64,000 bases of DNA from an uncultured Alphaproteobacteria bacterium (GTDB lineage Bacteria; Pseudomonadota; Alphaproteobacteria; CAAHEQ01; UBA3637): contig CAJOPC010000005.1 in the NCBI GenBank assembly GCA_905236245.1, positions 539 through 64,538 of the forward strand, in the 5' to 3' direction. Made by a program: the position numbers and the translations under genes. The notes beneath the pieces were generated by a model. It saw only the letters and a list, made by a program, of their open reading frames with translations, did no database searches and was not told the origin of the DNA. Shown piece by piece: positions 869-46,818 of the stretch (positions are counted from its first letter, which is position 1; each line of letters begins with the position of its first letter).

Positions 869-1745
869 AATTACAGCAAAATTAGTTGGTGAATTGCGCG
901 AAAAAACAGGCGCAGGAATGATGGAATGCAAAAAAGCATTGGTGGAAACAAATGGTGATTTGGATGCTGCCATTGACTTTTTACGTAAAAAAGGTATGTC
1001 CGTGGCCGAAAAGAAAGCCGGTCGTGTGGCAAACCAAGGTGCTGTCGGTGTGAAAGTAGCCGGCAACAAAGGTGCGTTGGTCGAAGTAAATATTGAAACA
1101 GACTTTGCCGCTAAAAACGCCGATTTCCAAAAATTTGTACAAGATGTCACCGCGGTGGCTTTAAACGGAACCAGCGATGTGGAAGCTTTAAAGGCGGCCT
1201 CAATGAACGGTTCTACCGTCCAAGACAATGTGGTTGCTTTGATTGCCAAGATTGGTGAAAACATGAGCTTGCGCCGCGTCGCTGTTGTGGAAGGAGAAAC
1301 AGTTGTTCCTTACTTGCATACAACATTGGGTGACGATTTGTGCAAAATCGGCGTGTTGGTTGCCGCCAGCGGTGCCAATGCTGCTGATGTCGCCAAACAA
1401 GTTGCTATGCACATTGCTGCAACCGCCCCAAAGTTCTTGAGTGTGGCGGATGTGGATGCTGAAACAGCAAATCATGAACGCAACATTTATGCCGAACAAG
1501 CAAAAGCCAGCGGCAAACCAGAAGCCATTATTGAAAAAATGGTGGAAGGCCGTATGCAAAAGTTCTATCAAGAAGCTGTGTTGTTAGAACAACCATTCGT
1601 GATGGATCCGGACAAAAAGGTCAAAGATGTATTGGCTGCTGCCGGTGTCACTGTGACATCTTTTGCCCGCTTTGCATTGGGTGAAGGCATTGAAAAGAAA
1701 CAAGAAGATTTTGCCGCCGAAGTGGCTGCGCAAATGAATGGCTAA
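861..1745 (+). CDS. tsf: elongation factor Ts
   Basis: The N-terminus MAEITAKLVGELREKTGAGMMECKKALVETNGDLDAAIDFLRKKG is the EF-Ts UBA-like signature. An AAAGGAG SD lies upstream, and the length is 294 aa. Confidence 0.95.
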   Translation: MAEITAKLVGELREKTGAGMMECKKALVETNGDLDAAIDFLRKKGMSVAEKKAGRVANQGAVGVKVAGNKGALVEVNIETDFAAKNADFQKFVQDVTAVALNGTSDVEALKAASMNGSTVQDNVVALIAKIGENMSLRRVAVVEGETVVPYLHTTLGDDLCKIGVLVAASGANAADVAKQVAMHIAATAPKFLSVADVDAETANHERNIYAEQAKASGKPEAIIEKMVEGRMQKFYQEAVLLEQPFVMDPDKKVKDVLAAAGVTVTSFARFALGEGIEKKQEDFAAEVAAQMNG

Positions 1746-1764
1746 TTAAACGAAAGGGGATCAC

Positions 1765-2319
1765 ATGAGTTGGGAACAAATTAAAGCCGATATGCAAAAC
1801 AATATGGTGAAAGCTGAAGAAGCTCTTCACAAAGAGTTTGCTGGATTACGCACAGGACGTGCAACAACTGCCTTGTTGGATGGCATTATGGTGGAAGCCT
1901 ATGGCTCTGTGGTCCCTTTGAACCAAGTTGGAAATGTTAGCGTGCCGGATGCGCGCACACTCAGTATTTCCGTTTGGGATAAAAGCTTGATTAAAGCGGT
2001 AGAAAAGGCAATTACCGAGGCCAATTTAGGATTAAATCCGATGAATGATGGCCAATTGATTCGCTTGCCGATTCCGCCTTTGTCGGAAGAGCGTCGTATG
2101 GAGATTGTGAAAATCGCCGGACGTTATACCGAGGAAGTGCGCGTTTCCGTTCGTAACTATCGTCGTGAGGCTTTAGATGCTTTGAAAGCCATCAAGGATA
2201 GTTTGTCCGAAGATGATTACAAGCGTTATGAAAAAGAGATCCAAGATATGACGGATAAAACAATCGCCAAATTGGATGAGAATTTAAAAGCAAAAGAAGC
2301 AGAAATTAAGCAGGTCTAA
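1765..2319 (+). CDS. frr: ribosome recycling factor
   Basis: 184 aa. Motifs LRTGRATTALLD, NLGLNPMNDGQLIRLPIPPLSEERR and RNYRREA are typical of RRF. An AAGGGGA SD is present. Confidence 0.95.
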   Translation: MSWEQIKADMQNNMVKAEEALHKEFAGLRTGRATTALLDGIMVEAYGSVVPLNQVGNVSVPDARTLSISVWDKSLIKAVEKAITEANLGLNPMNDGQLIRLPIPPLSEERRMEIVKIAGRYTEEVRVSVRNYRREALDALKAIKDSLSEDDYKRYEKEIQDMTDKTIAKLDENLKAKEAEIKQV

Positions 2320-3038
2320 TGAATATACAAACCGAAAACGATAAAATCCCTCAACACATTGCCATAATTATGGATGGTAATGGGCGTTGGGCAACCGAAA
2401 AAGGGTTGCCGCGCACCGAAGGACATCGTCAAGGAGCCAAAAACGTTCGTGTGATTTTGGAACACGCCAAAGAACGTGGGGTCAAGTATGTCACTTTATA
2501 TGCTTTTTCGTCCGAGAATTGGAATCGTCCCAAAGAGGAAGTCAATGTTTTGATGGAATTGTTTCGGAAATATCTTAAAGAAGATGTGGCAGATTTGCAA
2601 AAAAACAAAGTTTGTGTGTCCTTTATCGGGGATCGGGCGCGCTTCCCGGAAGATATGCAGGAGCGCATGAACGAAGTAGAACGTGAAACAGCAGATTATG
2701 ATGATTTCCATGTCGTTTTGGCGCTTTCCTATGGCGCGCGTGACGATATGATTGCCGCCATTAAGCGTATTGCTATGGATGCGATGGACAGAAAGTGTAT
2801 GATTTCCGCCATCAATGAGCAAGTTGTCAATGACGCTTTATCCACTCATGGAATTCCTTATCCAGATTTAGTGATTCGCACCAGCGGAGAGCAACGCCTC
2901 AGCAATTTTTTGTTGTGGGAAATTGCCTATGCTGAGTTGTATTTCACTCCAATTTATTGGCCCGATTTTAACGAGCAGGATTTAGATATTGCTATCGAGG
3001 CCTATGGTCGCCGCAACCGTCGTTTCGGCAAAGTGTAG
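2319..3038 (+). CDS. uppS: undecaprenyl-diphosphate synthase (cis-prenyltransferase)
   Basis: Carries HIAIIMDGNGRWA, TLYAFSSENWNRP and IRTSGEQRLSNFLLWEIAYAELYF motifs. TAATG start/stop overlap with frr. Confidence 0.93.
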   Translation: MNIQTENDKIPQHIAIIMDGNGRWATEKGLPRTEGHRQGAKNVRVILEHAKERGVKYVTLYAFSSENWNRPKEEVNVLMELFRKYLKEDVADLQKNKVCVSFIGDRARFPEDMQERMNEVERETADYDDFHVVLALSYGARDDMIAAIKRIAMDAMDRKCMISAINEQVVNDALSTHGIPYPDLVIRTSGEQRLSNFLLWEIAYAELYFTPIYWPDFNEQDLDIAIEAYGRRNRRFGKV

Positions 3039-3039
3039 A

Positions 3040-3858
3040 TTATTTGCATAAGATAAATTGCCCACTTTCACCGCAATAATTGCCTTGGCAATAAGGAGTT
3101 TGTTCTTCGGGACAGCAAGCGTTAAACCGGCATACATTATTCCCATAATATGACACACAAGAAGGTGTGCACCCCGTCTCGTTGCAACGATATTCTTTAC
3201 ACACTCCGTTACTGTAATATTCAAAACAATAAATGGCTCCTGCACAACATGAGACATTTAGGCAATTCCCATCCTCATTTTGCTTGCGACAATAACCTGT
3301 TTGTCCATCCTGACAACAACTATAGTAGTCATCTACAACATGAGGATGAGTCCCTTCGGAACAACAAACACCGCCTCCATCAGGTAAAGCGTTTTTATAT
3401 AAAATGCCTTGGCAACATCCATAATTGTCTCCATAAGAGAACCTATGCATAACATAAGGTTCTCCAGAACAACAAATATTATAATCATATGCACAATTGC
3501 CATCGGGATCTACTGTTTTGCAATATGGAACACCATCACAACAAATGGGGTATTCAGGGCCATATATTCTTGTGGCTGTTTGATTGGCATTACAACACAA
3601 AGGAATGCTTTCATTACAACATTGGTTTGTTTCTTTATTGCACACATTATCCCCTTGACAACAATAATCGCCGCATTGTTTTTCGGCTGGGCATGTTTCT
3701 CCGGGTGAATCTCCGTCTTTCCCATTAAAATGTATGCCGATTGAGTCAACGCCCGTTCCGCGATAAATGGAAGATTGTCGGCTTTTGCCTCCTCCTCCGA
3801 AGGCAAGTACACTTGTTGCCACTAAAATTGCAGAGCCAAATAATAATACTTTTTTCAT
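3040..3858 (-). CDS. secreted hyper-cysteine-rich protein, family member 1
   Basis: The ATG at 3858 is preferred over the TTG at 3873. Signal peptide MKKVLLFGSAILVATSVLA is followed by the leader module FGGGGKSRQSSIYRGTGVDSIGIHFNGK, shared with the ORFs at 12719 and 61511. The remainder has 36 Cys, including 10 CC doublets. Confidence 0.75.
   Translation of the reverse strand: MKKVLLFGSAILVATSVLAFGGGGKSRQSSIYRGTGVDSIGIHFNGKDGDSPGETCPAEKQCGDYCCQGDNVCNKETNQCCNESIPLCCNANQTATRIYGPEYPICCDGVPYCKTVDPDGNCAYDYNICCSGEPYVMHRFSYGDNYGCCQGILYKNALPDGGGVCCSEGTHPHVVDDYYSCCQDGQTGYCRKQNEDGNCLNVSCCAGAIYCFEYYSNGVCKEYRCNETGCTPSCVSYYGNNVCRFNACCPEEQTPYCQGNYCGESGQFILCK
3718..3801 (-). repeat. coding segment for the conserved post-signal leader module (copy 1 of 3)
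   Basis: Encodes FGGGGKSRQSSIYRGTGVDSIGIHFNGK. The same 28-aa module is encoded at 12827..12910 and 61568..61651. Confidence 0.8.
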
Positions 3859-4030
3859 GGAAAACCCTTTCAATACAGGTGGTTGGTATTTAAAAAAAAA
3901 CGAAGTTAAACACCTCTATTCTTTGATATAAGGATAACAGAACAAAACAAACAGGGCAAGTGAAAAAGTTCAATCATATCTTTTATGTCTATTTTGTGGT
4001 GTTTTTAAGAAAGATTTTTCAATTTTTTAC

Positions 4031-4059
4031 TTGCAAAAAAAAGTTTTTTGTATTAAAAT
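4031..4059 (+). promoter_or_regulatory. candidate sigma-70-type promoter (TTGCAA-17 nt-TAAAAT)
   Basis: The hexamers and 17-nt spacer were read directly. The site lies about 35 nt upstream of the 4093 ATG, in an AT-rich divergent intergenic region. Confidence 0.3.
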
Positions 4060-4092
4060 ATTAGTCACTTATTTTTTGGAAAGGAACAAGAA

Positions 4093-4659
4093 ATGAAACC
4101 AGAATCTCAAAAACAATCTTTAGATAGTAGAATTTATAGCGCCATCAAGGCCTTATGTAATGAAGATGCAAATGATGATCAAAAAGGTGCAGCTGCACCA
4201 GGATCGATTCGTGTTCGGGATGCTTTATCAGCGTTTGGCTTTTTGGCTCAACGCGCATCTGCACGAGAAATTGAATTTCACAAAGGTGATTATTTGCGGA
4301 TGTTTAATAAGACGCTGAATACCTTGGCGCCTGTTGCGGTTGAATCGGACGCAAAAGATTCGGCAGTTGCTGCGCCCGCCGTTGAGTTTACACCGACGAT
4401 TGTTGTTTTGGCAGATTGGTTTTTGAAACAAAATGAACTTTCTTACAATTCAAATTATCGAAACCGCTTGATTGATATGACCAAGATTATCGCTGCAAAA
4501 AATTTGCCGGTGCCATCTGAAAAGAAGGCAGATTGGACAAAGAAATTGGCTCCGAAACGTCCTCGTTCAACGAATATACGTCCGTTGAACGAACCTGCGG
4601 AGACTTGCACATGTACTCCTTTGACCTGCCATAATCGTCTTCCATCGATATATGACTAA
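4093..4659 (+). CDS. hypothetical protein (188 aa)
   Basis: A GGAAAGGA SD precedes the ATG. It ends 12 nt before mipZ on the same strand. It has an Ala/Pro-rich middle and a basic, Cys/Thr-containing tail (ETCTCTPLTCHNR). I recognise no family. Confidence 0.5.
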   Translation: MKPESQKQSLDSRIYSAIKALCNEDANDDQKGAAAPGSIRVRDALSAFGFLAQRASAREIEFHKGDYLRMFNKTLNTLAPVAVESDAKDSAVAAPAVEFTPTIVVLADWFLKQNELSYNSNYRNRLIDMTKIIAAKNLPVPSEKKADWTKKLAPKRPRSTNIRPLNEPAETCTCTPLTCHNRLPSIYD

Positions 4660-4671
4660 AAAGGAATTAAA

Positions 4672-5475
4672 ATGACGGCGAAAATTATTGTTTTTGCAAA
4701 CGAAAAAGGTGGTACAGGTAAATCCACATTGGCGATGCATACGATTGTTGCGTTGTTGCGTGCAGGGAAAAAAGTGGCCTCATTTGATTTGGACCCCAAT
4801 CAACAAAGTTTAACACGCTATATCGAAAATAGACGGACATTTGTGATGGAAAAAGGTGTTTCCTTGCCTTTGCCAGAGCACACTTGTTGGACGCCAGATG
4901 TAGCTAAAATTTATACTTTGCGCAGTCGATTGGATAAGTTATCAAATGAAGTAGATGCTATCGTCATTGATACCCCAGGATCTCACACAGAATTAGGTGT
5001 TGAAGCGATGACTTTAGCTGATGTCTTGGTGACACCGATGAACGATAGTTTGGTGGATTTGGATATTTTAGCTCTTGTGGATGGCGAGACCTTAAAGATT
5101 ACAGGCCCCAGCCATTTTGCCCAAACTGTTTGGAGCACACGTCAACAAAGAATGTTAGAGAGAAAGCCTTCTTTGAATTGGTTTGTTGTGCGCAACAGAA
5201 TGTTGTTCAACAAGTCCAGAAACTCTCAAACAATGTCTATCTTGCTCAATGCACTTTCTCGTCGTATTCATTTTGAATTGGTGGGCGTTGTGTCCGAACG
5301 TGTTGTTTTCCGTGAATTGTTCCTAAAAGGTTTAACTATGTTGGATTTTAAAGAGGACAATATTCGTATTCCCACAACTGTTTCGTCTAGAACGGCCCGT
5401 CAGGAACTTTGCATTTTAGTGGATAAAATTTGGGGAACCCCCTTGTATTCCGAACCTGTTTCTGCTATAAAATAA
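4672..5475 (+). CDS. mipZ: MipZ-type ParA-family ATPase (division-plane positioning)
   Basis: It has the deviant Walker A NEKGGTGKST. The blocks DLDPNQQSLTRYIENRR, VIDTPGS, VTPMNDSLVDLD, WFVVRNR, VFRELF and TARQEL are collinear with Caulobacter MipZ as I recall it. Confidence 0.8.
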   Translation: MTAKIIVFANEKGGTGKSTLAMHTIVALLRAGKKVASFDLDPNQQSLTRYIENRRTFVMEKGVSLPLPEHTCWTPDVAKIYTLRSRLDKLSNEVDAIVIDTPGSHTELGVEAMTLADVLVTPMNDSLVDLDILALVDGETLKITGPSHFAQTVWSTRQQRMLERKPSLNWFVVRNRMLFNKSRNSQTMSILLNALSRRIHFELVGVVSERVVFRELFLKGLTMLDFKEDNIRIPTTVSSRTARQELCILVDKIWGTPLYSEPVSAIK

Positions 5476-5501
5476 ATAGCATAAGAAACGGGAGGAATTT
5501 T

Positions 5502-7124
5502 ATGAATATTACGGCCGTAAAGACAAAGCCTTATTCAGATCAGATATTTGGTACGTCTGGGTTGAGGCGGCGTACCTCTGTCTTTATGCAGAAAAATTAT
5601 ATTCATAATGTGGTTCAATCATTTTTTAATGCTATTCAAGGTTTTGAAGGTAAAACGCTTATATTGGGTGGCGATGGCCGGTATGGGAGCAGTAAAGCCC
5701 TCCAAATTGTTATTAAAATTGCGGCAGCAAATGGTGTCGGACGGATTATCGTTGGAAAAAAAGGTTGGCTTTCTACTCCAGCGCTTTCACATTTGATTAC
5801 TTTAAACGATGCATTTGCAGGGATTATATTGACGGCAAGTCATAATCCCGGCGGTAAAGATGGAGATTTTGGCATTAAGTTTGATTTAAAAAATGGTGCC
5901 GGCGCACCGCTTTCTGTGACAAACAGAATAAGTCAATGTGCAAAAGCAATAACGCATTATTGGTGGTTTGATGCTCCGGATGTGGAATTGGGCAATATCG
6001 GTACAAAGCAAATTGGTAAAACGCAAGTCGAAGTAATAGATCCCGTTGAAGATTATGCTGCTTATATGCAAGAAATTTTTGATTTTAAAGCAATCAAAAA
6101 GCTTTTTGCCTCTGGATTTTCTTTTGTGTTTGATGCAATGAATGCTGTAACAGGACCATATGCTAAATATATTTTTGAAGAACTTCTTGGATCTCCCGCA
6201 GGTTCCGTTAGAAATGCAGAACCTAAAGTTGATTTTGGTGGATTGCATCCCGAGCCCAATCCTGTTTATGCAGCTCATTTAGTTAAAATGATGAAGGCAC
6301 CGAATGCACCAGATTTTGCAGCGGCTTCGGATGGAGACGGAGATCGATATATGGTGCTTGGTAAAAACTTTTTTATTGATCCGTCGGATAGTTTGGCCAT
6401 TTTGACGGAGCACCTTGATAAAATTCCGTTTTATCACAAGCGTCTTTATGGTGTTGCGCGCTCTATGCCAACCTCTGAGGCAGCAGATTTTGTGGCAAAG
6501 CGCAAAAAATTACCTATTTACAAAACGCCAACAGGATGGAAGTTTTTTGGATCCTTATTAGAAAATAAAAAGATCTCTTTGTGCGGTGAGGAAAGTTTTG
6601 GAGCCGGTTCAAATCATGTGATGGAAAAAGATGGTTTGTGGGCTATTTTGGCATGGCTTAATATCATGGCTATAACACATAAATCACCCCAGAAATTGGT
6701 TCAAGAATTGTGGGACAAGGATGGTCGAGTTTATTATGTGCGGCATAATTATGAAGACATTCCTTTGGATCAGGCGCAAAATTTAATGAGGGCATTGGCC
6801 TCCAGAATTGCTTCTCTTCCTGGACAAAAATTTGGAAGCTTGATTGTGAAATCTGCCGAAGTTTTTAATTACACGGACCCTGTTACTTCGGAAGTTGCCG
6901 AAAATCAAGGATATATTATTACGTTGTCAAATAAAACACGTGTTATGATTCGCTTGTCTGGAACAGGAAGTGTTGGCACAACTTTACGGCTTTATTTTTC
7001 ACGTCATGAAAGAAAATTAAATGAGGCCCCGGCAGAAGTGTTGGCTACCGTTATCTTGGCCACCAGTTCGATTTTACAATTGGAAAAATATATCGGTGTG
7101 AATACCCCAACAACAATTGTTTAA
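5502..7124 (+). CDS. pgm: phosphoglucomutase (alpha-D-phosphohexomutase family)
   Basis: The start is trimmed to ATG 5502, with GGAGG at 5491-5495. It has the TASHNPGG catalytic-Ser loop, the DGDGDR metal loop and GEESFG. Length is about 540 aa. Confidence 0.9.
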   Translation: MNITAVKTKPYSDQIFGTSGLRRRTSVFMQKNYIHNVVQSFFNAIQGFEGKTLILGGDGRYGSSKALQIVIKIAAANGVGRIIVGKKGWLSTPALSHLITLNDAFAGIILTASHNPGGKDGDFGIKFDLKNGAGAPLSVTNRISQCAKAITHYWWFDAPDVELGNIGTKQIGKTQVEVIDPVEDYAAYMQEIFDFKAIKKLFASGFSFVFDAMNAVTGPYAKYIFEELLGSPAGSVRNAEPKVDFGGLHPEPNPVYAAHLVKMMKAPNAPDFAAASDGDGDRYMVLGKNFFIDPSDSLAILTEHLDKIPFYHKRLYGVARSMPTSEAADFVAKRKKLPIYKTPTGWKFFGSLLENKKISLCGEESFGAGSNHVMEKDGLWAILAWLNIMAITHKSPQKLVQELWDKDGRVYYVRHNYEDIPLDQAQNLMRALASRIASLPGQKFGSLIVKSAEVFNYTDPVTSEVAENQGYIITLSNKTRVMIRLSGTGSVGTTLRLYFSRHERKLNEAPAEVLATVILATSSILQLEKYIGVNTPTTIV

Positions 7125-7139
7125 AAACTGATTTTGTTC

Positions 7140-7168
7140 TTGCAATCTATTCTTTTTATCGTTACAAT
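7140..7168 (+). promoter_or_regulatory. candidate sigma-70-type promoter (TTGCAA-17-TACAAT) for mlaEF
   Basis: Hexamers read directly, 22 nt upstream of the GTG start at 7191. Confidence 0.4.
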
Positions 7169-7190
7169 AGGGCTAGGAAAGGAGCAGTAA

Positions 7191-7979
7191 GTGTTCGAAA
7201 AATTTTTATCATTTGTCAACACGTTGGGACGTTTTGTCATTGGCTTTTTTCGTGCCAGTGGAGACTTGATTTTGTTCACGGCCCAGATACTTTTGTATGT
7301 TTTTAAAGCTCCTTTTTATATCAATGAAACAATTCGTATGAGTATTGAAATAGGCTTTTATTCGTTGCCTGTTGTTGCATTGACAACTATTTTTTCGGGC
7401 ATGGTGATTGCTATTCAAACTTATGAAGCCGTGTCCAAGTTTTCGGCAGAAGGTGCCGTTTCAATGGTTGTGTTAGTTGCGGTGACGCGTGAGTTGGCCC
7501 CCGTGATGGCCGCATTGATGGTGGCAGGGCGAATTGGCGCAGCGATGGCGGCGGAAATTGGAACAATGCGCGTGACAGAACAAATAGATGCGCTTTCTAC
7601 TTTGCGGACAAATCCTGTTCAATATTTGATTGTTCCTCGGGTTGTTGCCGGAACATTGATGATGCCTCTGCTTGTTTTAATCGGAGATGCGATTGGCGTG
7701 TGCGGAGGATATCTTGTCGGTGTGACAAAGATGGATTTTAATGCCACAACTTATTTAATCAATACATGGAATACTCTTAAAGCGATGGATATTGTTTCCG
7801 GCATGACAAAGGCTGCTGTGTTCGGTTTCATCATTACTGTGTTAGGATGTTATCATGGTTTTAAATCTCAAGGTGGGGCACAAGGCGTTGGTCAGGCCAC
7901 AACAAATGCGGTGGTGTCTTCCAGTATTTTGATCTTGATTTTCAACTATCTGTTAACTGAACTCTTTTTCAAAATGTAA
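7191..7979 (+). CDS. mlaE: MlaE-family ABC transporter permease (phospholipid/lipid asymmetry)
   Basis: GTG start with a GGAAAGGAG SD. It is a multi-TM protein carrying VTRELAPVMAALMVAGRIGAAMAAEIGTMRVTEQIDAL, typical of MlaE/YrbE. Confidence 0.85.
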   Translation: MFEKFLSFVNTLGRFVIGFFRASGDLILFTAQILLYVFKAPFYINETIRMSIEIGFYSLPVVALTTIFSGMVIAIQTYEAVSKFSAEGAVSMVVLVAVTRELAPVMAALMVAGRIGAAMAAEIGTMRVTEQIDALSTLRTNPVQYLIVPRVVAGTLMMPLLVLIGDAIGVCGGYLVGVTKMDFNATTYLINTWNTLKAMDIVSGMTKAAVFGFIITVLGCYHGFKSQGGAQGVGQATTNAVVSSSILILIFNYLLTELFFKM

Positions 7980-7985
7980 GAGGTT

Positions 7986-8723
7986 ATGATGAAAGAAAAG
8001 AAAGTACGAATCAGTTTGTCCCATGTTGCTAAAGCTTTTGGCAAAAAGCAAGTTTTGAAAGATGTGAGTCTTGATGTTCACGAGGGAGAATCTGTTGTTA
8101 TTATTGGCGGTTCCGGAACGGGAAAATCTGTTACATTAAAGTGTTTGTTAGGTTTAATTACGCCGGATCGAGGCAGTATAAGTATGACCACAGACAACAT
8201 TGGTATGTTGTTTCAAGGGGCTGCGTTATTCGACAGTTTGTCCGTATGGGAAAATGTATCATTTGTGATGTTGCAAAAAAAACATGCAGATCGTGACGCG
8301 GCTAAAAAACTAGCTATTCAAAAATTAGCACAGGTTGGATTACCTGCGGAGGTGGCGGATGCCTATCCAGCGGACTTGTCCGGAGGTATGAAAAAGCGCG
8401 TAGGATTGGCTCGTGCAATCGCAACAAATCCAGAAATTATTTTCTTTGATGAACCGACCACTGGATTGGATCCTATTATGTCGGATGTCATCAATGATTT
8501 GATTGTAGATTGCGTTAAAAAATTGGGTGCTACGGCTTTGACGATTACTCATGATATGAATTCCGCCCGAAAAATTGCCGATAGAATTGCCATGCTTTAC
8601 AATGGAGAAATTATTTGGGTTGGGACTGTTGCAGAATTGGATAAAACAACAAATCCGTATGTGCGTCAGTTTGTCGCAGGTTCTGCCAAAGGTCCTATCA
8701 AAATGGAGGTTAAGGCCGAGTAA
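7986..8723 (+). CDS. mlaF: MlaF-type ABC transporter ATP-binding protein
   Basis: Has Walker A GGSGTGKS, the signature LSGGMKKRV and Walker B IIFFDEPT. It sits directly after mlaE. Confidence 0.85.
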   Translation: MMKEKKVRISLSHVAKAFGKKQVLKDVSLDVHEGESVVIIGGSGTGKSVTLKCLLGLITPDRGSISMTTDNIGMLFQGAALFDSLSVWENVSFVMLQKKHADRDAAKKLAIQKLAQVGLPAEVADAYPADLSGGMKKRVGLARAIATNPEIIFFDEPTTGLDPIMSDVINDLIVDCVKKLGATALTITHDMNSARKIADRIAMLYNGEIIWVGTVAELDKTTNPYVRQFVAGSAKGPIKMEVKAE

Positions 8724-10108
8724 TGCCTAAAAAAACGACTCATTTTGTATGTCAAAATTGCGGTGCTGTCTATGCTAGGTGGGCAGGCAAGTGTGAGGCT
8801 TGTGGCGAATGGAACACCATCCAAGAAGAAGCGGTGCCTGTTTCAGATAGCCCTACAGCGACCGGTGGTAAAAATGGTAAGAAGATAGAATTTTTTGATT
8901 TGCGAGGAACGCCTGAAACCATTTTTCGACTCAAAACAAATATTGGAGAATTGGATCGAGTTTGTGGTGGCGGTTTAGTGCCAGGTTCTGTTATTTTGGT
9001 TGGTGGAGATCCCGGTATTGGTAAATCTACGTTGCTTTTGCAAGCAGTGGCCAGTTTGACCAAAGGTGTAAATAAGCAAGGTTCTCCGACAAGGTGTAGT
9101 TATATTTCTGGCGAAGAATCGGTGGATCAAGTGCGTTTGCGCGCTATGCGATTAGGATTGGCCGATAATCCAGTGGATTTGGCCAGCGAAACACATATTC
9201 GAGATATTGTAGCAACTTTGGATACGAAAGAAGCTCCCGATGTGGTTATCATTGATTCGATTCAGACAATGTATACGGACATGGTGGATTCTGCCCCCGG
9301 CACGGTTACTCAAGTGCGGGCCTGCGGTCATGAGCTTATTCGCTTGGCTAAAAAACGGGGCTTTGTATTGTTTTTGGTTGGTCATGTGACAAAAGAAGGC
9401 ACCTTGGCCGGGCCTCGCGTGTTGGAGCATATGGTGGATACCGTTCTTTATTTTGAAGGTGACAGAGGTCATCATTTCCGGATTTTGCGCTCTATTAAAA
9501 ATCGTTTTGGCGCGACGGATGAAATTGGTGTTTTTGAGATGACGGATAAGGGATTGTCTGAAGTTTTGAATCCGTCAGCTCTTTTTTTGGCCGATAGACA
9601 AGGTCATATTTCCGGCAGTTGTGTTTTTGCAGGAATTGAAGGATCTCGCCCATTATTGGTGGAAATCCAGGCGCTTGTAGCGCCCATGAGCGGAACGAAT
9701 CCGCGACGAGCGGTTGTTGGTTGGGATACAAATCGATTAAATATGCTGTTGGCTGTTTTGGAAACAAGGTGCGGCATTTCACTTGCCAATAAAGATATTT
9801 TCTTGAATGTGGCGGGCGGTTTGAAATTGACTGAACCGGCCGTAGATTTGGCTGCTATTATGGCAATTTTATCCAATGCGTTTAACCATCCTCTTCCATC
9901 GGACATGGTCTTTTTTGGAGAGGTTGGTTTGTCCGGAGAAATTAGAAATGTAGCGGCCAGTGATTTACGTTTGAAGGAGGCAAAAAAGTTGGGATTTACA
10001 AAGGCTTTGGTGCCGCCAAATAAAAACAGAAAAACCGATTTTAAAGCAACGGAAATCGGTAATTTAAAAACCGTGTTAGATTTTTTTGAAAAGGGGAGAG
10101 AAAAATGA
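8723..10108 (+). CDS. radA: DNA repair protein RadA
   Basis: Has an N-terminal C4 zinc finger (CQNCGAVYARWAGKCEACGEWNT), Walker A GDPGIGKST, the KNRFG motif and a Lon-like C-terminal domain. Confidence 0.95.
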   Translation: MPKKTTHFVCQNCGAVYARWAGKCEACGEWNTIQEEAVPVSDSPTATGGKNGKKIEFFDLRGTPETIFRLKTNIGELDRVCGGGLVPGSVILVGGDPGIGKSTLLLQAVASLTKGVNKQGSPTRCSYISGEESVDQVRLRAMRLGLADNPVDLASETHIRDIVATLDTKEAPDVVIIDSIQTMYTDMVDSAPGTVTQVRACGHELIRLAKKRGFVLFLVGHVTKEGTLAGPRVLEHMVDTVLYFEGDRGHHFRILRSIKNRFGATDEIGVFEMTDKGLSEVLNPSALFLADRQGHISGSCVFAGIEGSRPLLVEIQALVAPMSGTNPRRAVVGWDTNRLNMLLAVLETRCGISLANKDIFLNVAGGLKLTEPAVDLAAIMAILSNAFNHPLPSDMVFFGEVGLSGEIRNVAASDLRLKEAKKLGFTKALVPPNKNRKTDFKATEIGNLKTVLDFFEKGREK

Positions 10109-11677: not shown

Positions 11678-11764
11678 AAAGGGGCTTAGTTCAAAAGACG
11701 GGCTTGTTCTTGTCTAGAGTAGAGGGAACAAAACTTTATATTGCTTCATAGGAAAGGATATAAA

Positions 11765-12640
11765 ATGACGAACACATACGCTTTATCTTTATTGGCATCC
11801 AATGCCTCTTTGCCGAAATATTTAGCCGAAATCAGTAAGTTTCCGATGTTAGATGCGGAAAAAGAGTATATGTTGGCTAAACGTTATAAGGAAACGGGTG
11901 ATATTGAGGCGGCACACGAATTGACGACTTCGCATTTGCGGTTGGCCGCGAAAGTTGCTATCTCATTTAGGCATTACGGATTGGCCCTTTCCGATTTAAT
12001 TTCCGAAGCAAACATCGGGTTGATGCAAGCCATTAAAAAGTTTGATCCGGATAAAGGATTCCGTTTGGCAACCTATGCCATTTGGTGGATTAAAGCAGCA
12101 GTGTCAGAGTTCATTTTAAAATCTTGGTCCTTGGTGAAAATTGGGACAGTTGCGACACAGAAGCGGCTGTTTTACAATTTGCACAAGATTAAATCTCGCC
12201 TGGGCCTTTATGGTGAAACTTCGTTAAATGATGAGACGGCCGATCAAATTGCTGCTCAGCTGGGCGTATCCAAAAAAGATGTGATTGAAATGGAACAACG
12301 CCTCTCCGGTGATTCGTCTTTGAATGCGACTTTGTCCCACGATTCTACAACAAATTATCAAGATATGTTGACGGACGGCGAAGAGACTATTGAAGAAAGA
12401 TTGGGTGAAACCCAAGAAATGATTTTGAAAAAGAAATTGTTGAAGGAAGCTTTGGAAACTTTGTCCGATCGTGAACGCCAAATTGTTGAGCGTCGCTTCC
12501 TGACGGATAATCCGGATACATTGGAAGATTTGGGATTGGAATTTCATATCAGTCGTGAGCGTGTGCGTCAAATTGAAACCAAAGCATATCAAAAAGTATC
12601 CAAAGCGATTCATGCCGGCGCAGCAAAATACGCATTGTAA
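11765..12640 (+). CDS. rpoH: RNA polymerase sigma-32 (heat-shock sigma factor)
   Basis: The start is trimmed to ATG 11765, with a GGAAAGGA SD. It has the sigma-70 region 2 block (FDPDKGFRLATYAIWWIKAAV), an RpoH-box-like QKRLFYNLHK and the region 4 block ISRERVRQIE. Confidence 0.9.
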   Translation: MTNTYALSLLASNASLPKYLAEISKFPMLDAEKEYMLAKRYKETGDIEAAHELTTSHLRLAAKVAISFRHYGLALSDLISEANIGLMQAIKKFDPDKGFRLATYAIWWIKAAVSEFILKSWSLVKIGTVATQKRLFYNLHKIKSRLGLYGETSLNDETADQIAAQLGVSKKDVIEMEQRLSGDSSLNATLSHDSTTNYQDMLTDGEETIEERLGETQEMILKKKLLKEALETLSDRERQIVERRFLTDNPDTLEDLGLEFHISRERVRQIETKAYQKVSKAIHAGAAKYAL

Positions 12641-12688: not shown

Positions 12689-12718
12689 GGGGTTATAGAA
12701 TTGAATCAAGGAGTTTTT

Positions 12719-13948
12719 ATGTGTCAAAATAAAATTCATACCCTCCCGCGTTGTCACAAGCATTTAATTTTTAAAGTATTTTTAGCTATTTTTCTGGCCT
12801 TAATTGTTGCGTCGTCTGCATTTGCTTTTGGCGGTGGAGGCAAAAGCCGCAAGTCTTCTGTTTATCGCGGAACGGGGGTGGATTCCATTGGCATACATTT
12901 TAATGGAAAAGGCGGTGATTCTGAAGAGGAATCGGAAGAGACATGTCCTGCCGAAAAACAATGTGGTGATTATTGTTGCCAAGGGGATAATATTTGTCAA
13001 AAAAATGAGGCAGGAGAGTTTCAGTGTTGTAATGAAAAAACAGGACATTGTTGCGTTGATAATCAATCGGCTTATAAGACTCCATGGACTTCTAATTCAT
13101 GTTGTTCGGGAAGTCTGTATTGTTATGGGCGAAATGAAGATGGTACTTGTCGGTATGATTGGTTTGCTTGTTGTCCTAGCACATATGAGCTTCATAATGA
13201 TTATTGTTGTAATGGAAAAATATTTATAGGAGCGGGTGTTGATGGTGCGGACATGTGTTGTTCTGCTGATACACAGCCTTCGTGTTCTATTCGAAATAAA
13301 GAAGGGGTTTGTAAAGGCGCATTTTGTTGCCCAGGAGATGTAACAAAAAGGCCGGAAGGTGATGTGTGTTATGCAGCAGAATTTACGGGCTGCAAAACAA
13401 ATTCAGATTGTGATTCTGGTGAATATTGTAAGTTAACGGGAGATAAGTGTAAATATCCTAGCGAGGGAGTTTGTACGGCCATAGGAGATTATTTGGAACC
13501 AGAAAATGAAATAAGCGGTTTGGGTAGAGTGAAGATAAGTCTTGATGATCGGATGACATGGTGGTCGGCGGATAATTGGTGTAAAGCCCAAGGAATGCAT
13601 TTACCAGAAGTGGAAAAATTTAATTGTTATATGAGCGGGACCAGTACGCCGGTAATATCTGGAATCGATCGCCGAGGGGCTTGTTGCGCTGGGGATGATG
13701 TTGAATGTGAAATTATTGGTGATTGGTTTTATGAAAATAAAAGGGATAAATATAGTCCTATTTTATATGAATTAAAACAAGCTATTGGAGAAGAACATTG
13801 GGGTTGGTGGTATTATTGGACAGCCTCTCGTGTATATGAAAAAGATGATGATGGTTGTTTTTACTTTAATATATCGTTAGCACATGCTGATGTCGGAGTA
13901 TACAATCGTGATTACTTGGGCATGCGAGCTCTTTGTGTTAATGATTAG
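12719..13948 (+). CDS. secreted hyper-cysteine-rich protein, family member 2, with lectin-like C-terminal domain
   Basis: ATG 12719 has an AAGGAG SD 5 nt upstream. The hydrophobic leader ends ...SSAFA and is followed by FGGGGKSRKSSVYRGTGVDSIGIHFNGK. The block ETCPAEKQCGDYCCQGDNIC is shared with member 1. Many CC doublets follow, and the tail is Trp/Tyr-rich (MTWWSADNWCKAQGMHLP ... YYWTAS ... ALCVND). Confidence 0.75.
   Translation: MCQNKIHTLPRCHKHLIFKVFLAIFLALIVASSAFAFGGGGKSRKSSVYRGTGVDSIGIHFNGKGGDSEEESEETCPAEKQCGDYCCQGDNICQKNEAGEFQCCNEKTGHCCVDNQSAYKTPWTSNSCCSGSLYCYGRNEDGTCRYDWFACCPSTYELHNDYCCNGKIFIGAGVDGADMCCSADTQPSCSIRNKEGVCKGAFCCPGDVTKRPEGDVCYAAEFTGCKTNSDCDSGEYCKLTGDKCKYPSEGVCTAIGDYLEPENEISGLGRVKISLDDRMTWWSADNWCKAQGMHLPEVEKFNCYMSGTSTPVISGIDRRGACCAGDDVECEIIGDWFYENKRDKYSPILYELKQAIGEEHWGWWYYWTASRVYEKDDDGCFYFNISLAHADVGVYNRDYLGMRALCVND
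12827..12910 (+). repeat. coding segment for the conserved leader module (copy 2 of 3)
   Basis: Encodes FGGGGKSRKSSVYRGTGVDSIGIHFNGK. Confidence 0.8.
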
Positions 13949-14027: not shown

Positions 14028-14807
14028 ATGAGTGAAATTATTATACATAGTCCTTCGGATTTTCCAGGTTTACGTTCGGCAGGACGTTTAGCCGCCGAAA
14101 CATTGGATTACATTACCCCTTTCGTCAAAGTGGGCGTGAGCACCGAATATTTGGACGATTTAATGAATGATTTTATCAAATCAAAAGGTGGTGTATCCGC
14201 GTGTATAGGCTATCATGGATATCCAAAGGCCACGTGTATTTCGCCAAATCATGTCGTTTGTCACGGTATTCCCAGTCCAGATAAACATTTGCAAAATGGT
14301 GATATTATCAACATTGATGTGACGGTGATTTTGGATGGATATTATGGCGATACTTCGCGGATGTATTTTGTTGGTCATCCGTCTATCAAAGCAAAACGAT
14401 TAGTTATGAATGCTTATGATACGATGATGGCTGGTATCAATGCGGTGAAGCCAGGTGCTACTACGGGAGATTTGGGATATGCTATGGAAAAAATGGCCGA
14501 GAAAGAAGGTTTTTCCGTCGTGCGTGATTATTGCGGTCATGGTTGTGGTAAGGTTTTTCATGGTGCGCCAAACATTTTGAATTTTGGTCGCAAAGGATCA
14601 GGTGTTAAAATTGTTCCCGGTATGGTTTTTACGGTTGAGCCCATGGTGAACATCGGAACTTTTGAAACGGTTGTTTTAAATGATGATTGGACGGTTGTGA
14701 CAAAGGACAAACAGCTTTCGGCTCAATTTGAACATATGTTGGGTGTGACGGAGGACGGCTTTGAAATCTTTACGCTTTCTCCAAAGGGATTACATTTTCC
14801 CACTTAG
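14028..14807 (+). CDS. map: type I methionine aminopeptidase
   Basis: Carries the motifs CHGIP, INIDVT, DGYYGDTSRM, GHGCG(K)VFH and FTVEPM, and EH near the C-terminus. Confidence 0.95.
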   Translation: MSEIIIHSPSDFPGLRSAGRLAAETLDYITPFVKVGVSTEYLDDLMNDFIKSKGGVSACIGYHGYPKATCISPNHVVCHGIPSPDKHLQNGDIINIDVTVILDGYYGDTSRMYFVGHPSIKAKRLVMNAYDTMMAGINAVKPGATTGDLGYAMEKMAEKEGFSVVRDYCGHGCGKVFHGAPNILNFGRKGSGVKIVPGMVFTVEPMVNIGTFETVVLNDDWTVVTKDKQLSAQFEHMLGVTEDGFEIFTLSPKGLHFPT

Positions 14808-18393: not shown

Positions 18394-18484
18394 TGGCGGA
18401 AGGAGGGGGATTCGAACCCCCGATAGAGAAAATCCCTATAACAGATTTCGAGTCTGCCGCATTCGACCACTCTGCCATCCTTCC
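18394..18484 (-). tRNA. tRNA-Ser (anticodon CGA), CCA encoded
   Basis: The minus-strand sequence is GGAAGGATGGCAGAGTGGTCGAATGCGGCAGACTCGAAATCTGTTATAGGGATTTTCTCTATCGGGGGTTCGAATCCCCCTCCTTCCGCCA. It folds by eye into a 7-bp acceptor stem, a CTCGAAA anticodon loop, a long variable arm and a GGGGG/TTCGAAT/CCCCC T-arm. Confidence 0.9.
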
Positions 18485-18518: not shown

Positions 18519-18597
18519 TAACAGATTTGTCCGCTTCGCGTTCTCTCCCTTCGGTCGGTAGCGAGTCTGCCGCATTCGACCACTCTGCCATCCTTCC
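18519..18597 (-). pseudogene. truncated tRNA-Ser 5'-half duplicate with a 33-nt insertion in the anticodon
   Basis: 18597->18562 repeats tRNA nucleotides 1-36 exactly. Next come 33 unrelated nt (18561->18529), then AAATCTGTTA (18528->18519). After that homology ends, and no variable or T arm is present. Confidence 0.6.
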
Positions 18598-40101: not shown

Positions 40102-40130
40102 TTGACAGTTCCTAAAAAATCTGCGATATT
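40102..40130 (+). promoter_or_regulatory. candidate promoter (TTGACA-17-GATATT) for cdsA-rseP-bamA...
   Basis: The consensus -35 coincides with the TTG that the ORF track used as a start. This supports the downstream ATG 40159 as the true cdsA start. Confidence 0.35.
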
Positions 40131-40158
40131 CATTGTAAAAATAAGAAAGGATATCAAA

Positions 40159-40995
40159 ATGCATTCTAACCTTTTTTTAAGAATTGTTTCGTCTGTGATT
40201 TTTGTTCCCATTGTTTTGGGCGCCATTTGGTATGGCCGCGGAGCTTATGAAGAATTTTCCATCCCGCTTTTTAATATCTTTTTGGCGTGCTTAGGCGCGG
40301 GCCTTGCATGGGAGTGGGATACAATGTTCCACAAAAAAATCACTATTTGTAGTATTTTGTTGACGCTGTTTGCATGTTTGGCTGTTTTTATAACCGAAGA
40401 TCGGCCGTTGTTTGCTTTGTGGATGATTTTAGTTGGAACGATGGTTATATTTTATAAAACAAAAGGAAATTTGGCATTTGCTTTGGGAACGCCTTATATT
40501 ATGTTGCCGCTTGTTTCGTTGAGCTTTTTGTATTACACAAACGGACATATCAGTCGAGAAATTGTTTTATGGTTATTTTTTGTTGTATGGGCTACAGACG
40601 TCGGCGGATATGTGGTTGGCAAGTCAATCGGAGGGCCAAAATTGATGCCGAGTATTAGCCCTAAAAAAACTTGGGCCGGCTTGATCGGCGCGATTTGTTT
40701 TGCTATGGCCATTGCTTATATTTTCGCCCTGTATCTGAAAGCTTATGGATATATGACAGGATCTTTTTCTTATAATACACGTATGTTGGTTCTTTCTTCT
40801 GGTTTGTTGGCGATTATTTCGCAAGCGGGAGATTTGTTTGAATCAAAAATCAAGAGACTTTTAAACATTAAGGATTCCAGCCATTTGATTCCCGGACAAG
40901 GTGGTTTATTTGATCGTTTTGATGGCTTGATTTTTGCGGCAATGGCTGTGGCTATTTTTGTTGTGTTTGTCGGAGAAAGTTGGTGGACCCCATGA
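40159..40995 (+). CDS. cdsA: phosphatidate cytidylyltransferase
   Basis: A multi-TM protein with SPKKTWAG and the signature SKIKRLLNIKDSSHLIPGQGGLFDRFDG. AAGAAAGGA SD before ATG 40159. Confidence 0.88.
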   Translation: MHSNLFLRIVSSVIFVPIVLGAIWYGRGAYEEFSIPLFNIFLACLGAGLAWEWDTMFHKKITICSILLTLFACLAVFITEDRPLFALWMILVGTMVIFYKTKGNLAFALGTPYIMLPLVSLSFLYYTNGHISREIVLWLFFVVWATDVGGYVVGKSIGGPKLMPSISPKKTWAGLIGAICFAMAIAYIFALYLKAYGYMTGSFSYNTRMLVLSSGLLAIISQAGDLFESKIKRLLNIKDSSHLIPGQGGLFDRFDGLIFAAMAVAIFVVFVGESWWTP

Positions 40996-42089
40996 TAACA
41001 ACTCTTTTTTACCTGGCCGCGTTTATTATAGTACTGTCTTTGGTGGTTATTGTCCACGAAGGCGGGCATTTTATTGTTGCGCGCTTGTGCGGTGTAAAAG
41101 TTGTAGAATTTTCCATGGGCTTTGGAAAAATCCTCTTTTCTCATACGGATAAAAAGGGAACGGCTTGGCAAGTTCGTCTGATTCCGCTTGGCGGATATGT
41201 GAAAATGTTGGGAGATGAAGATCCGGCCAGTGCAAAATCTTCAGATAAAGATATTCCGGAAGAAGATAAAGATAAAACTTTTGTGTCAAAAAGTCTTTGG
41301 CGTCGTGCTGCGATTATTTTCGCAGGTCCTGCTACGAACTATTTATTCGCCTTTGTTTTGATCGCCGGATTGCTTTGGCAGTTGGGTGAGGTCATTATCA
41401 AGCCTGTGATTGGATCGGTTATTCCAGATTCGGCCGCGGAAGAAGCCCATTTATTGCCTCAGGATGAGATTGTTTCTATCAATGGCACGCCGATAGTGTC
41501 ATTTTCTGATATTCAACGGGTGACACGTTTGACCGATTATGATAAAACTTTGGCTCTTACGATTCGTAGAAATGGGGAAGAAATTTTGGTTCAACTGACG
41601 CCCAAAGTGGATCCCAAATCAAAAATGCCGTTGATTGGTATTACATCATCGTCCGAAACTATTGTTATCAACAACAATTTATCCTTGGGTGAAGCGCTTC
41701 AAAAATCTGCACTAACATTGTGGGAAACAACGCGTGATACCCTGATTTACTTAGGACAGGTGATTTCCGGACATCGTGTTCCAAGCGAGATGCGTGGACC
41801 TTTGGGTATTGCAGAAGCTTCGGGCGACGCAATGGCCGCGGGGCTTATTTCTTTGTTGGCTTTTGTTGCACAAATATCTATAGCGATAGGCCTCATGAAT
41901 TTATTGCCGATTCCTGTATTGGATGGAGGACATTTGTTCCTTTATTTGATTGAGGCTATTCGACGCAAACCTTTAACCGAAAAAATGCAAGGAGCCATTA
42001 TGTGGGCAGGGCTCAGCATTTTATTAGCAATCTTTGCCTACACGATGATTTTGGATGTCCCCAGAATCATACAAAGGATTATGGGATGA
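40992..42089 (+). CDS. rseP: site-2 (RIP) zinc metalloprotease RseP
   Basis: ATG 40992 (ATGA overlap with cdsA). It has HEGGHFIVAR (HExxH), an internal PDZ-like region and NLLPIPVLDGGH. Confidence 0.9.
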   Translation: MITTLFYLAAFIIVLSLVVIVHEGGHFIVARLCGVKVVEFSMGFGKILFSHTDKKGTAWQVRLIPLGGYVKMLGDEDPASAKSSDKDIPEEDKDKTFVSKSLWRRAAIIFAGPATNYLFAFVLIAGLLWQLGEVIIKPVIGSVIPDSAAEEAHLLPQDEIVSINGTPIVSFSDIQRVTRLTDYDKTLALTIRRNGEEILVQLTPKVDPKSKMPLIGITSSSETIVINNNLSLGEALQKSALTLWETTRDTLIYLGQVISGHRVPSEMRGPLGIAEASGDAMAAGLISLLAFVAQISIAIGLMNLLPIPVLDGGHLFLYLIEAIRRKPLTEKMQGAIMWAGLSILLAIFAYTMILDVPRIIQRIMG

Positions 42090-44350: not shown

Positions 44351-44371
44351 TTAAAAAGAAAGGAGAAAAAC

Positions 44372-44932: not shown

Positions 44933-44945
44933 TAAGGAAGAAACT

Positions 44946-46025: not shown

Positions 46026-46028
46026 GCC

Positions 46029-46817: not shown

Positions 46818-46818
46818 T

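Follow-up and report, generated by a model that had tools for sequence, protein, structure and literature searches.

A predicted C-type-lectin-superfold head on a cysteine-rich stalk: a modular family of probable binding proteins in uncultured gut Alphaproteobacteria

The 64-kb stretch of DNA analysed here (the window; contig CAJOPC010000005.1 of an uncultured Alphaproteobacteria bacterium) carries a gene for a cysteine-rich protein that an earlier, sequence-only reading had described as an export leader and disulfide-rich spacer joined to a lectin-like C-terminal head. The gene is an uninterrupted plus-strand open reading frame (ORF) that starts at either 12701 (TTG) or 12719 (ATG) and ends at 13948. 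As the sequence AAGGAG sits 6 nt upstream of the ATG, 12719 is the likely start, giving a protein of 409 residues and favouring the start chosen previously. The motifs quoted in that reading all occur in the translation in the same order (FGGGGKSRKSSVYRGTGVDSIGIHFNGK, GGDSEEESEE, ETCPAEKQCGDYCCQGDNIC, SCCSGSLYCYGRNEDGTCRYDWFACC and MCCSADTQPSCSIRNKEGVCKGAFCC), the further motifs CKTNSDCDSGEYCKLTGDKCKYPSEGVC, MTWWSADNWCKAQGMHLP, YYWTASRVY and GMRALCVND are likewise present, and its estimate for the beginning of the C-terminal domain (approximately 13500) lies near the start of the head at approximately 13520 (LGRVKIS...). The mature protein has 373 residues, is acidic (pI 4.7) and contains 36 Cys. 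The elements of the gene are as follows.

12707 to 12712, plus strand: Shine-Dalgarno motif AAGGAG, 6 nt before ATG 12719, read from the sequence.
12719 to 12826, plus strand: Sec-type signal peptide, residues 1-36, from the translation and segment map.
12827 to 12937, plus strand: conserved mature N-terminal peptide FGGGGKSRKSSVYRGTGVDSIGIHFNGK and acidic linker GGDSEEESE, residues 37-73.
12938 to 13390, plus strand: Cys-rich stalk, residues 74-224.
13391 to 13474, plus strand: disulfide knot CKTNSDCDSGEYCKLTGDKCKYPSEGVC, residues 225-252.
13520 to 13945, plus strand: C-terminal head, residues 268-409, followed by the stop codon at 13946-13948.
13856 to 13936, plus strand: presumed ligand-binding segment C380-C406 (CFYFNISLAHADVGVYNRDYLGMRALC), comprising beta3-beta4-beta5, placed by alignment to the variable repeat (VR) of the relative at locus L047, described below.

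A search of 5.8 billion proteins with the full-length protein returned only 24 relatives, all of them unnamed and all without a Pfam domain. The complete leader-stalk-knot-head order is shared by P0002 (E 1e-75, 42% identity, 95% coverage), by P0003 (E 3e-61) and, in another genome, by L006-L008, these full-architecture relatives from other genomes being 40-42% identical to the gene product; the identical 409-residue protein is on record for 4 contigs, and querying the contig index for exact copies of it gave no entry. The order appears to be conserved far beyond chance. Searching with a hidden Markov model (HMM) of the head alone gave 368 cluster representatives (at 50% identity) at E ≤ 1e-3, 146 of them at E ≤ 1e-10. 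Among approximately 165 family proteins the head follows either a Sec leader or a prepilin N-terminus, with the stalk present or absent. A leader and stalk are combined in P0004, P0007, P0008, P0011, P0012 and others, a leader, knot and head in P0005, P0006, P0014, P0018 and P0020, and all four modules in the gene of interest, P0002 and P0003; P0009, P0010, P0022 and P0023 have two heads, and in P0024 the knot and head (the head 36% identical) are attached to a prepilin-type N-terminus. The modules thus seem to recombine freely across relatives, and this shuffling bears out the modular architecture of leader, Cys-rich spacer and variable distal part that had been proposed from the single gene.

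Class III prepilin signals consist of a short basic leader, then G/x-x-x-x-E (here and below, a slash marks the junction) and a hydrophobic alpha1-N helix. Such a signal, G/RSMVEMLGVLAIIGVLS, occurs in at least 39 proteins, with more among the N-terminally truncated ones; 10 of the 121 relatives scanned match N_methyl, prepilin-dependent pilin hits are also present, and the metagenome-assembled genome (MAG) UBA3650 appears to hold both the Sec-leader and the prepilin type of N-terminus. P0024 carries this signal as G/RSMVEMLGVL; the window protein has none, and as a Sec-type signal and FGGGG...GVDSIGVH replace the prepilin motif, it is no pilin. In 126 of 164 instances the head stands at the C-terminus, and 21 proteins have between 2 and 8 heads, among them giants of 4335 residues (P0029, 8 detected heads) and 6368 residues (P0033, 6 detected heads). 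A prepilin-type or prepilin-like N-terminus and 4-8 heads at domain E < 1e-5 were observed in P0029, P0033, P0034 and P0039, and in the two largest, P0029 and P0033, 13-20 stretches match the head profile; a Pfam scan of 9 large relatives found no domain. Across 185,579 species genomes, head relatives occur only in MAGs named 'Alphaproteobacteria bacterium', from the human gut (SGB, Hadza and BRZ bins) and the ruminant gut (goat, roe deer and yak), often at many loci per genome (several to more than 10 copies). No head relative was found in 2.9 million IMG/VR contigs, and a phage origin of the head is without support.

Profile searches do not place the head. Pfam and NCBIfam scans of the full protein, its C-terminal 155 residues and both window paralogs returned nothing, and the hmmscan proposed alongside the earlier lectin call was negative: neither the protein nor its C-terminal 155 residues nor any of 14 aligned heads matched DUF1566/Lcl_C, Lectin_C or FGE-sulfatase at E ≤ 10. 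Faint profile echoes were present in the 121 relatives, to Lcl_C in one (E 0.011, sub-threshold), SenA in three (best E 0.008) and adhesin_Lcl in one; Lectin_C (PF00059) gave no hit in this set either. Glucosidase II, the sole PDB profile match of the knot and head (E 0.63), was rejected as spurious. The head appears, on these searches, to belong to no catalogued family.

Structure prediction is more informative about its fold. The AlphaFold2 (AF2) model of the knot and head, from a 15-sequence alignment (A1), has a predicted local distance difference test score (pLDDT) of 92.1 and a predicted template modelling score (pTM) of 0.89, and the head elements follow the order beta1-alpha1-(insert)-alpha2-beta2-beta3-beta4-beta5, with strands at 45-50, 141-147, 157-162, 167-172 and 181-184 and helices at 57-66 and 123-132 (model numbering). 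The first helix, alpha1 (57-66), is formed by WWSADNWCKAQG, beta2 (141-147) by YYWTAS with its invariant Trp, and beta5 by the ALC ending; the insert between alpha1 and alpha2 comprises 45-55 residues, contains Cys and varies in length across the family. Alpha1, beta2 and the last strand bear the residues that are invariant in the head (A, N, W, C, A, L, W and C), among them W143, C64 and C182 in A1, that is, the beta2 Trp at the 'WIGL' position, the alpha1 Cys and the last-strand Cys. In the model, these would be the positions at which the scaffolds of C-type lectin-like domains (CTLDs) are conserved, and the order of strands and helices, the beta2 Trp and the alpha1 and last-strand Cys are those of the C-type-lectin superfold. 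The knot and head together contain 12 Cys. Only approximately 9 residues separate beta2 from beta3 in the model, which has no long loop region, and the Ca2+/sugar motifs EPN/QPD...WND are absent from residues 268-409, so the head does not have the features of a Ca2+-dependent C-type lectin.

Foldseek comparison of the model with the PDB gave formylglycine-generating enzyme (FGE) as the best neighbour (E 3.4e-3), together with the C-terminal domains of OvsA, EgtB and SenA, intimin (1f00, probability 0.72), Mtd (1yu0-4), the Link domain of LYVE-1 (8ox3, target-normalised TM-score (TMt) 0.53) and the C-terminal domain of Bd2740 (TMt 0.58). The top neighbour in BFVD is a phage DUF1566 protein (E 1.1e-2, probability 1.00, TMt 0.63, rmsd 4.1 Å), followed by herpesvirus and poxvirus C-type lectins and further DUF1566 proteins. 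The leading neighbours are therefore all of the C-type-lectin superfold but every one has E > 1e-3 and, as no single structural match is significant, the fold call rests on their uniformity. The models support a C-type-lectin superfold for the head, nearest the DUF1566 and compact-CTLD end. The C-type-lectin-fold or DUF1566-like assignment of the sequence-only reading consequently stands at the level of fold, on the AF2 model, the Foldseek neighbours and the retroelement described next, but fails at the level of HMMs.

The fold-level lectin call gains support that is independent of the structure models from a diversity-generating retroelement (DGR) in a relative. The last 210 nt of each available head gene were compared with the gene's own locus, and in L047 (JAFUSH010000016.1, Alphaproteobacteria MAG RGIG4780, from roe deer reticulum) a complete DGR with its target occupies positions 1513-9281, with the following components.

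1513 to 6351: target gene, 1612 residues, ending in the knot and head (...FNWWSAYNWCKAQG...CTAFYAGLYVGYLRNNDRYYGSSNDYAVCK, then the stop codon).
6783 to 7172: bAvd, 129 residues, PF22296 at E 1.3e-20.
Approximately 7375 to 7490: template repeat (TR), with the matched segment at 7383-7474.
8055 to 9281: reverse transcriptase (RT), 408 residues, RVT_1 at E 1.5e-23, with IGNLTSQ and YVDD motifs.

The VR (6257-6348) and TR (7383-7474) differ at 17 of 92 positions, all 17 of them at TR adenines, and their identity extends beyond the stop codon. The TR has 16 Asn AAY codons set between constant residues (C-x-A-F-x-A-x-L...R...Y-A-V-C-K) that coincide with the family-conserved residues of the head, and the randomised positions map to beta3-beta4-beta5, the last approximately 30 residues of the head. 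This pattern is the signature that mutagenic retrohoming leaves when it acts on the C-terminal ligand-binding surface of a C-type-lectin (CLec) fold, of which Mtd, TvpA and LdtA are described cases (PMC5758913), and the cassette makes the head a bona fide DGR scaffold. The segment of the window gene that aligns with the L047 VR (CTAFYAGLYVGYLRNNDRYYGSSNDYAVC) in A1, 13856-13936, is among the more variable columns on inspection and is, by this alignment, the putative ligand-binding segment. No further DGR was found in twenty metagenome loci.

The stalk contains 24 Cys, including nine CC doublets with 6-21 residues between them. Over the stalk and the start of the knot, an 11-sequence alignment (A4) of the first 197 mature residues has 16 invariant Cys columns, and the corresponding AF2 model predicts residues 41-180 at pLDDT 84-92 with short beta strands only. 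As the 24 Cys, the nine doublets and the 16 invariant columns all indicate, the stalk is best read, on the model, as a disulfide-stapled beta-hairpin ladder. No Pfam model matches it, and Foldseek comparison of its model with the PDB gave no meaningful neighbour (best E 1.6). The granulin fold is a ladder of CC doublets, each tying neighbouring short hairpins, and the stalk resembles it in its repeated doublets and predicted stacked short beta hairpins; it differs from the granulin module, which has 12 Cys and four CC doublets, in spacing its doublets otherwise and in having no Pfam hit to Granulin (PF00396), and TNFR and follistatin structural matches appear only at E > 2, leaving a granulin-like or TNFR-like stalk unsupported. 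The knot that follows has the pattern C-x5-C-x5-C-x14-C and precedes the head in all 15 aligned modules; C1, C7, C13 and C28 are invariant in A1, and the AF2 model gives it two strands at pLDDT 88-96. Weak hits to Dickkopf_N (4 of 121 relatives, best E 0.0028) and Myxo_Cys_RPT (9 of 121, best E 1.7e-4) apply to each relative as a whole, the scan giving no matched part.

The n-region of the signal peptide is basic (MCQNKIHTLPRCHKH), its core is hydrophobic (LIFKVFLAIFLALIVASS) and A-F-A stands ahead of F37, with probable cleavage after A36; in the paralogs the junction has the canonical form MKKVLLFGTAILVATSVLA/FGGGG. The 'export leader' identified previously is thus in part a Sec signal peptide, as claimed, but it also includes a conserved peptide of 30 residues that is retained on the mature protein and predicted to be disordered. 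The family consensus of this peptide is A-F-G-G-(Gly/His/basic)-Y-x-G-V-D-[AS]-I-G-V-H-[FIV]-x-G; it was found in 62 of 165 family proteins, with G, G and H invariant in the alignment, and is strongly conserved across proteins that are otherwise unalignable. It stands where relatives have the prepilin N-terminus, and the first 39 mature residues have an AF2 pLDDT of only 35-42, the prediction for the peptide alone being one of disorder. Being conserved, retained and predicted to be unstructured, it is as expected for a segment that folds only on a partner. In P0022, P0023, P0030 and P0045, FSC/GG replaces AF/GG, placing a Cys just ahead of the Gly-rich stretch, possibly as a non-canonical lipoprotein lipobox.

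A leader-only profile searched against the 5.8 billion proteins returned three fragments, with the short query and the word index probably limiting. Against the PDB, the leader profile (A3, 12788-12910) weakly matched AWGGN...GVDAI, the BLIP-II/RCC1 blade motif of the beta-propeller in 1jtd_B, with the score summed over repeats; the E of 5.9e-5 refers to the whole sequence, and single stretches are not significant. As no RCC1-like repeat protein was found in the window and 85 related loci, the match is treated as a possible short-motif coincidence. By eye only, GVDSIGIHFNGK resembles chaperone-usher N-terminal extension (Nte) motifs, such as '..GGTVHFKGEVV' of FimA, which are amphipathic strands completing the incomplete Ig fold of an adjoining subunit; around the examined paralogs there was no sign of an Ig-like pilin domain, a chaperone or an usher. 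We put forward, tentatively and as a minority possibility, that the peptide is a previously undescribed sorting or anchoring signal of Alphaproteobacteria from gut and rumen, swappable with the prepilin N-terminus, that represents a new mode of displaying disulfide-rich cargo on the surface of diderms and has as its cargo a new, uncatalogued family of CLec-fold proteins that DGRs can capture. If so, the BLIP-II echo would be a hint that the peptide docks into a partner as a complementing beta strand.

We consider that the gene probably encodes an extracytoplasmic, disulfide-bonded, stalked ('lollipop') binding protein of a diderm gut alphaproteobacterium. Its product is most likely a surface or secreted ligand-binding protein, for which we infer an adhesin or effector function. 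The Sec signal peptide would direct export, with signal peptidase I expected to cut after A-F-A, and the 36 Cys would be oxidised in the periplasm to produce the rigid beta-hairpin ladder of the stalk, the small knot and the lectin-like-fold head predicted by AF2. The stalk would be a spacer that projects the head, and the head the working part, its last approximately 27 residues (13856-13936) forming, by analogy to the relative with the DGR, a variable ligand-binding surface over a conserved scaffold made up of the motif WWSADNWCKAQG in alpha1, the Trp of beta2 and the closing ALC. As for the N-terminal peptide (FGGGG...GVDSIGIHFNGK), it is predicted to be disordered and may be a handle that docks to an envelope anchor or to a sorting or secretion component, probably by beta-strand addition, and in related genomes a prepilin N-terminus at the same position would mount the same head on a pilus. 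Candidate ligands are a glycan or protein carried by host mucus, by particles of food or by other microbes, with specificity presumably diversified mainly by the many scattered paralogs with shuffled modules and occasionally by a DGR. Export to the surface or medium would most plausibly proceed via a type II secretion system (T2SS) or a type IV filament-related route, which is favoured because prepilin-type relatives are abundant and Lcl, the collagen-like protein of Legionella, provides a precedent (PMC11162425).

Several results weigh against this interpretation. Sequence profiles from Pfam, NCBIfam and the PDB put the head in no lectin-like family, no Foldseek match reaches E ≤ 1e-3 and query-normalised TM-scores (TMq) are approximately 0.3-0.4, those of the leading PDB neighbours being 0.3-0.37, and the structures are predictions from shallow alignments of 15 and 11 sequences. 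The DGR sits in a distant relative, the only one among approximately 87 head genes checked, and the window gene has no TR, RT motif, Avd or second copy of its 3′ end within the 64 kb. The genes next to it include none for an anchor, usher, secretin or pilus, and heavy disulfide bonding in a presumably anaerobic organism would need a Dsb system.

The absence of an adjacent anchor gene would be accounted for if the protein were a soluble binder or effector, freely secreted and unanchored (for example by a T2SS), with the N-terminal peptide a secretion or quality-control signal. T2SS substrates typically combine a Sec signal with a folded cargo rich in disulfides, the many prepilin-type relatives imply that the clade has T2SS-like machinery or a type IV filament, and Lcl, the closest analogue, is a T2SS substrate that occurs on the cell surface as well as in supernatants (PMC11162425). 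However, the same head on pilin N-termini in relatives points to cell-attached display, and the few relatives with FSC/GG resemble proteins with a lipoprotein-type anchor. In addition, we know of no T2SS signal that is a linear N-terminal peptide. Free secretion is rather unlikely, although it is the main alternative and retains appreciable weight. It is improbable that the protein is periplasmic and never crosses the outer membrane, its head binding an envelope ligand such as peptidoglycan or a lipopolysaccharide (LPS) precursor: a Sec signal is the only export feature evident, with no autotransporter, two-partner secretion domain, secretion-type C-terminal domain or lipobox, but the long rigid stalk, the many shuffled paralogs and the multi-head giants of up to 6368 residues are features of surface proteins exposed to changing surroundings, and the pilin-mounted versions and the DGR hypervariation of the head are typical of these as well.

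The structural neighbours raise the question of whether the head is not a binding module but an FGE/EgtB-like enzyme that uses copper or iron to oxidise Cys or thiol substrates. Its best neighbours in the PDB are formylglycine-generating enzymes and sulfoxide or selenoxide synthases, and the weak SenA hits noted above point the same way; this is nevertheless highly improbable, as the head has approximately 140 residues against approximately 280 for FGE, with a TMq of approximately 0.32 and no hit to FGE-sulfatase (PF03781) at E ≤ 10, the region equivalent to the active site is the least conserved in the family and is randomised by the DGR in L047, and, as TvpA demonstrates, FGE-like targets of DGRs bind rather than catalyse (PMC5758913). 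An artefact of assembly or annotation fusing a stalk-only gene to a head gene, as might be imagined from the separate existence of stalk-only (P0004, P0007, P0008) and leader-plus-head (P0005, P0006, P0014) genes and as the sequence-only reading had itself named as a danger, is rejected, since the frame is intact over 1230 nt, the identical protein lies on 4 contigs, and P0002, P0003 and L006-L008 from other genomes share the full architecture.

The preferred reading, a stalked binding protein, can be set against several known systems. Lcl is a Sec-exported, surface-associated protein of a diderm that binds host glycosaminoglycans (PMC11162425); both it and the window protein have an elongated stalk and a C-terminal head of lectin-like fold without Ca2+/carbohydrate motifs, and a DUF1566 (Lcl_C, PF07603) protein is the best viral structural neighbour of the head. 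They differ in that the Lcl stalk is a trimeric collagen triple helix and the stalk here a predicted monomeric Cys ladder, in that the C-terminal domain of Lcl has no disulfides whereas the head and knot hold 12 Cys, and in that the Lcl_C HMM does not match the window protein. The DGR variable proteins Mtd (Bordetella phage), TvpA (Treponema, FGE-like) and LdtA (Legionella, DUF1566-like 'CLec2') carry their variable ligand-binding residues within the C-terminal 30-45 residues of a CLec fold whose scaffold is constant. The family resembles them through L047, with its full cassette of target, bAvd, TR and RT, its adenine-only mismatches and its AAY codons, and through the Mtd and FGE-type structures among the Foldseek neighbours of the head; the '...ALCK' ending also recalls the Cys-containing ends of CLec2 VRs (as we read PMC5758913). 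The window gene differs in having no TR, RT or Avd within the 64 kb, and the head matches none of the Pfam models by which DGR targets are classed (Mtd, FGE-sulfatase and DUF1566); it would fall into 'category c' of Wu et al., that of unassignable CLec targets (PMC5758913).

The CTLD of intimin/invasin and the hyaluronan-binding Link domain are similar to the head in being compact CTLDs that have no long loop region and that form the distal tip of an elongated array. They lack its Cys-containing insert of 45-55 residues and have no sequence similarity to it, and intimin is displayed by a beta-barrel and Ig-like (Big) repeats. Finally, the modular pilins of Streptococcus sanguinis include PilB with a von Willebrand factor A (vWA) module and PilC with a lectin module (PMC8179133, PMC9934059), and many relatives in the present family similarly graft the knot and head onto a prepilin N-terminus (G/RSMVEMLGVL...), placing an adhesive module on a filament subunit; the window protein differs in its Sec signal, its AFA/FGGGG junction and its FGGGG...GVDSIGVH peptide, and the grafted module is of a different fold. 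What is found here is a known strategy, a stalked CLec-fold binder that is sometimes DGR-diversified, built from three uncatalogued modules.

The uncultured Alphaproteobacteria of gut and rumen are common yet almost unstudied, and through this family they possess an extensive, shuffled set of stalked heads of lectin-like fold. Such a repertoire is the mark of a surface-recognition system directed at host mucus, the diet or other microbes. As the head lies outside Pfam and NCBIfam, annotation pipelines and DGR-target surveys that use those models are expected to miss the family. The Cys-ladder stalk and the conserved N-terminal peptide are two modules without a known counterpart, and the apparent interchangeability of the peptide with a pilin N-terminus is a handle on how these bacteria display proteins. 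No new principle is involved: the find is a dark family of some size, from a little-studied clade of gut bacteria, that has a clean link to DGRs and carries an unexplained conserved N-terminal signal.

A six-frame scan for the shared N-terminus found three paralogs in the window, the gene of interest and the following two.

3040 to 3858, minus strand: paralog 1 (P0008, 272 residues), sharing the signal peptide, the N-terminal peptide and the first Cys block; stalk only, headless.
61511 to 62395, plus strand: paralog 3 (294 residues), with the same signal peptide and FGGGGK...GVDSI.VH peptide and a different Cys-rich body; headless.

Paralog 1 does share the leader and ETCPAEKQCGDYCCQGDNVC with the gene of interest, as had been stated, and across the leader and first Cys block (12817-13003; inverted repeats I1 and I2) the two are 82-84% identical in DNA. 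The gene of interest is solitary, having rpoH (11741-12640) on one side and map (14028-14807) on the other; radA, cvpA, cdd, rlmH, radC and uvrA lie nearby. Both other paralogs are solitary as well: paralog 1 follows tsf-frr-uppS (uppS upstream) and has on its other side an uncharacterised ORF and then mipZ/pgm, and paralog 3 follows infB-truB-pnp (pnp upstream). In other genomes, paralogs again lie between housekeeping genes at non-syntenic sites, P0002 being flanked by recA and hydrogenase genes and P0014 by ychF and rsmB. The examined neighbours of five paralogs are housekeeping genes only, with no usher, secretin, anchor or Dsb gene among them as an operon partner. An envelope cluster, cdsA-rseP-bamA-skp-lpxD-(gap)-lpxA-...-lpxB, lies at 40102-48773 in the window and identifies the host as a diderm with LPS, and the presence of mipZ and rpoH fits an alphaproteobacterium.

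In the related genome at L001, an NADH-dependent [FeFe]-hydrogenase operon adjoins a paralog, which suggests an anaerobic lifestyle despite very Cys-rich exported proteins. At L044 (JAZRDB010000012.1), two family members are in tandem, at 3509-6268 and 6373-7287; the larger, P0096 (915 residues), has the leader, EGF-like Cys repeats and a head at residues 537-679, together with a segment that, by eye only, resembles a discoidin or F5/8 type C carbohydrate-binding domain. Elsewhere in the window, the 5′ part of a tRNA-Ser(CGA) gene (18394-18484, minus strand) is repeated as a perfect 36-nt direct repeat at 18562-18597, 113 nt away, and this partial duplication could be the scar of an integration event.

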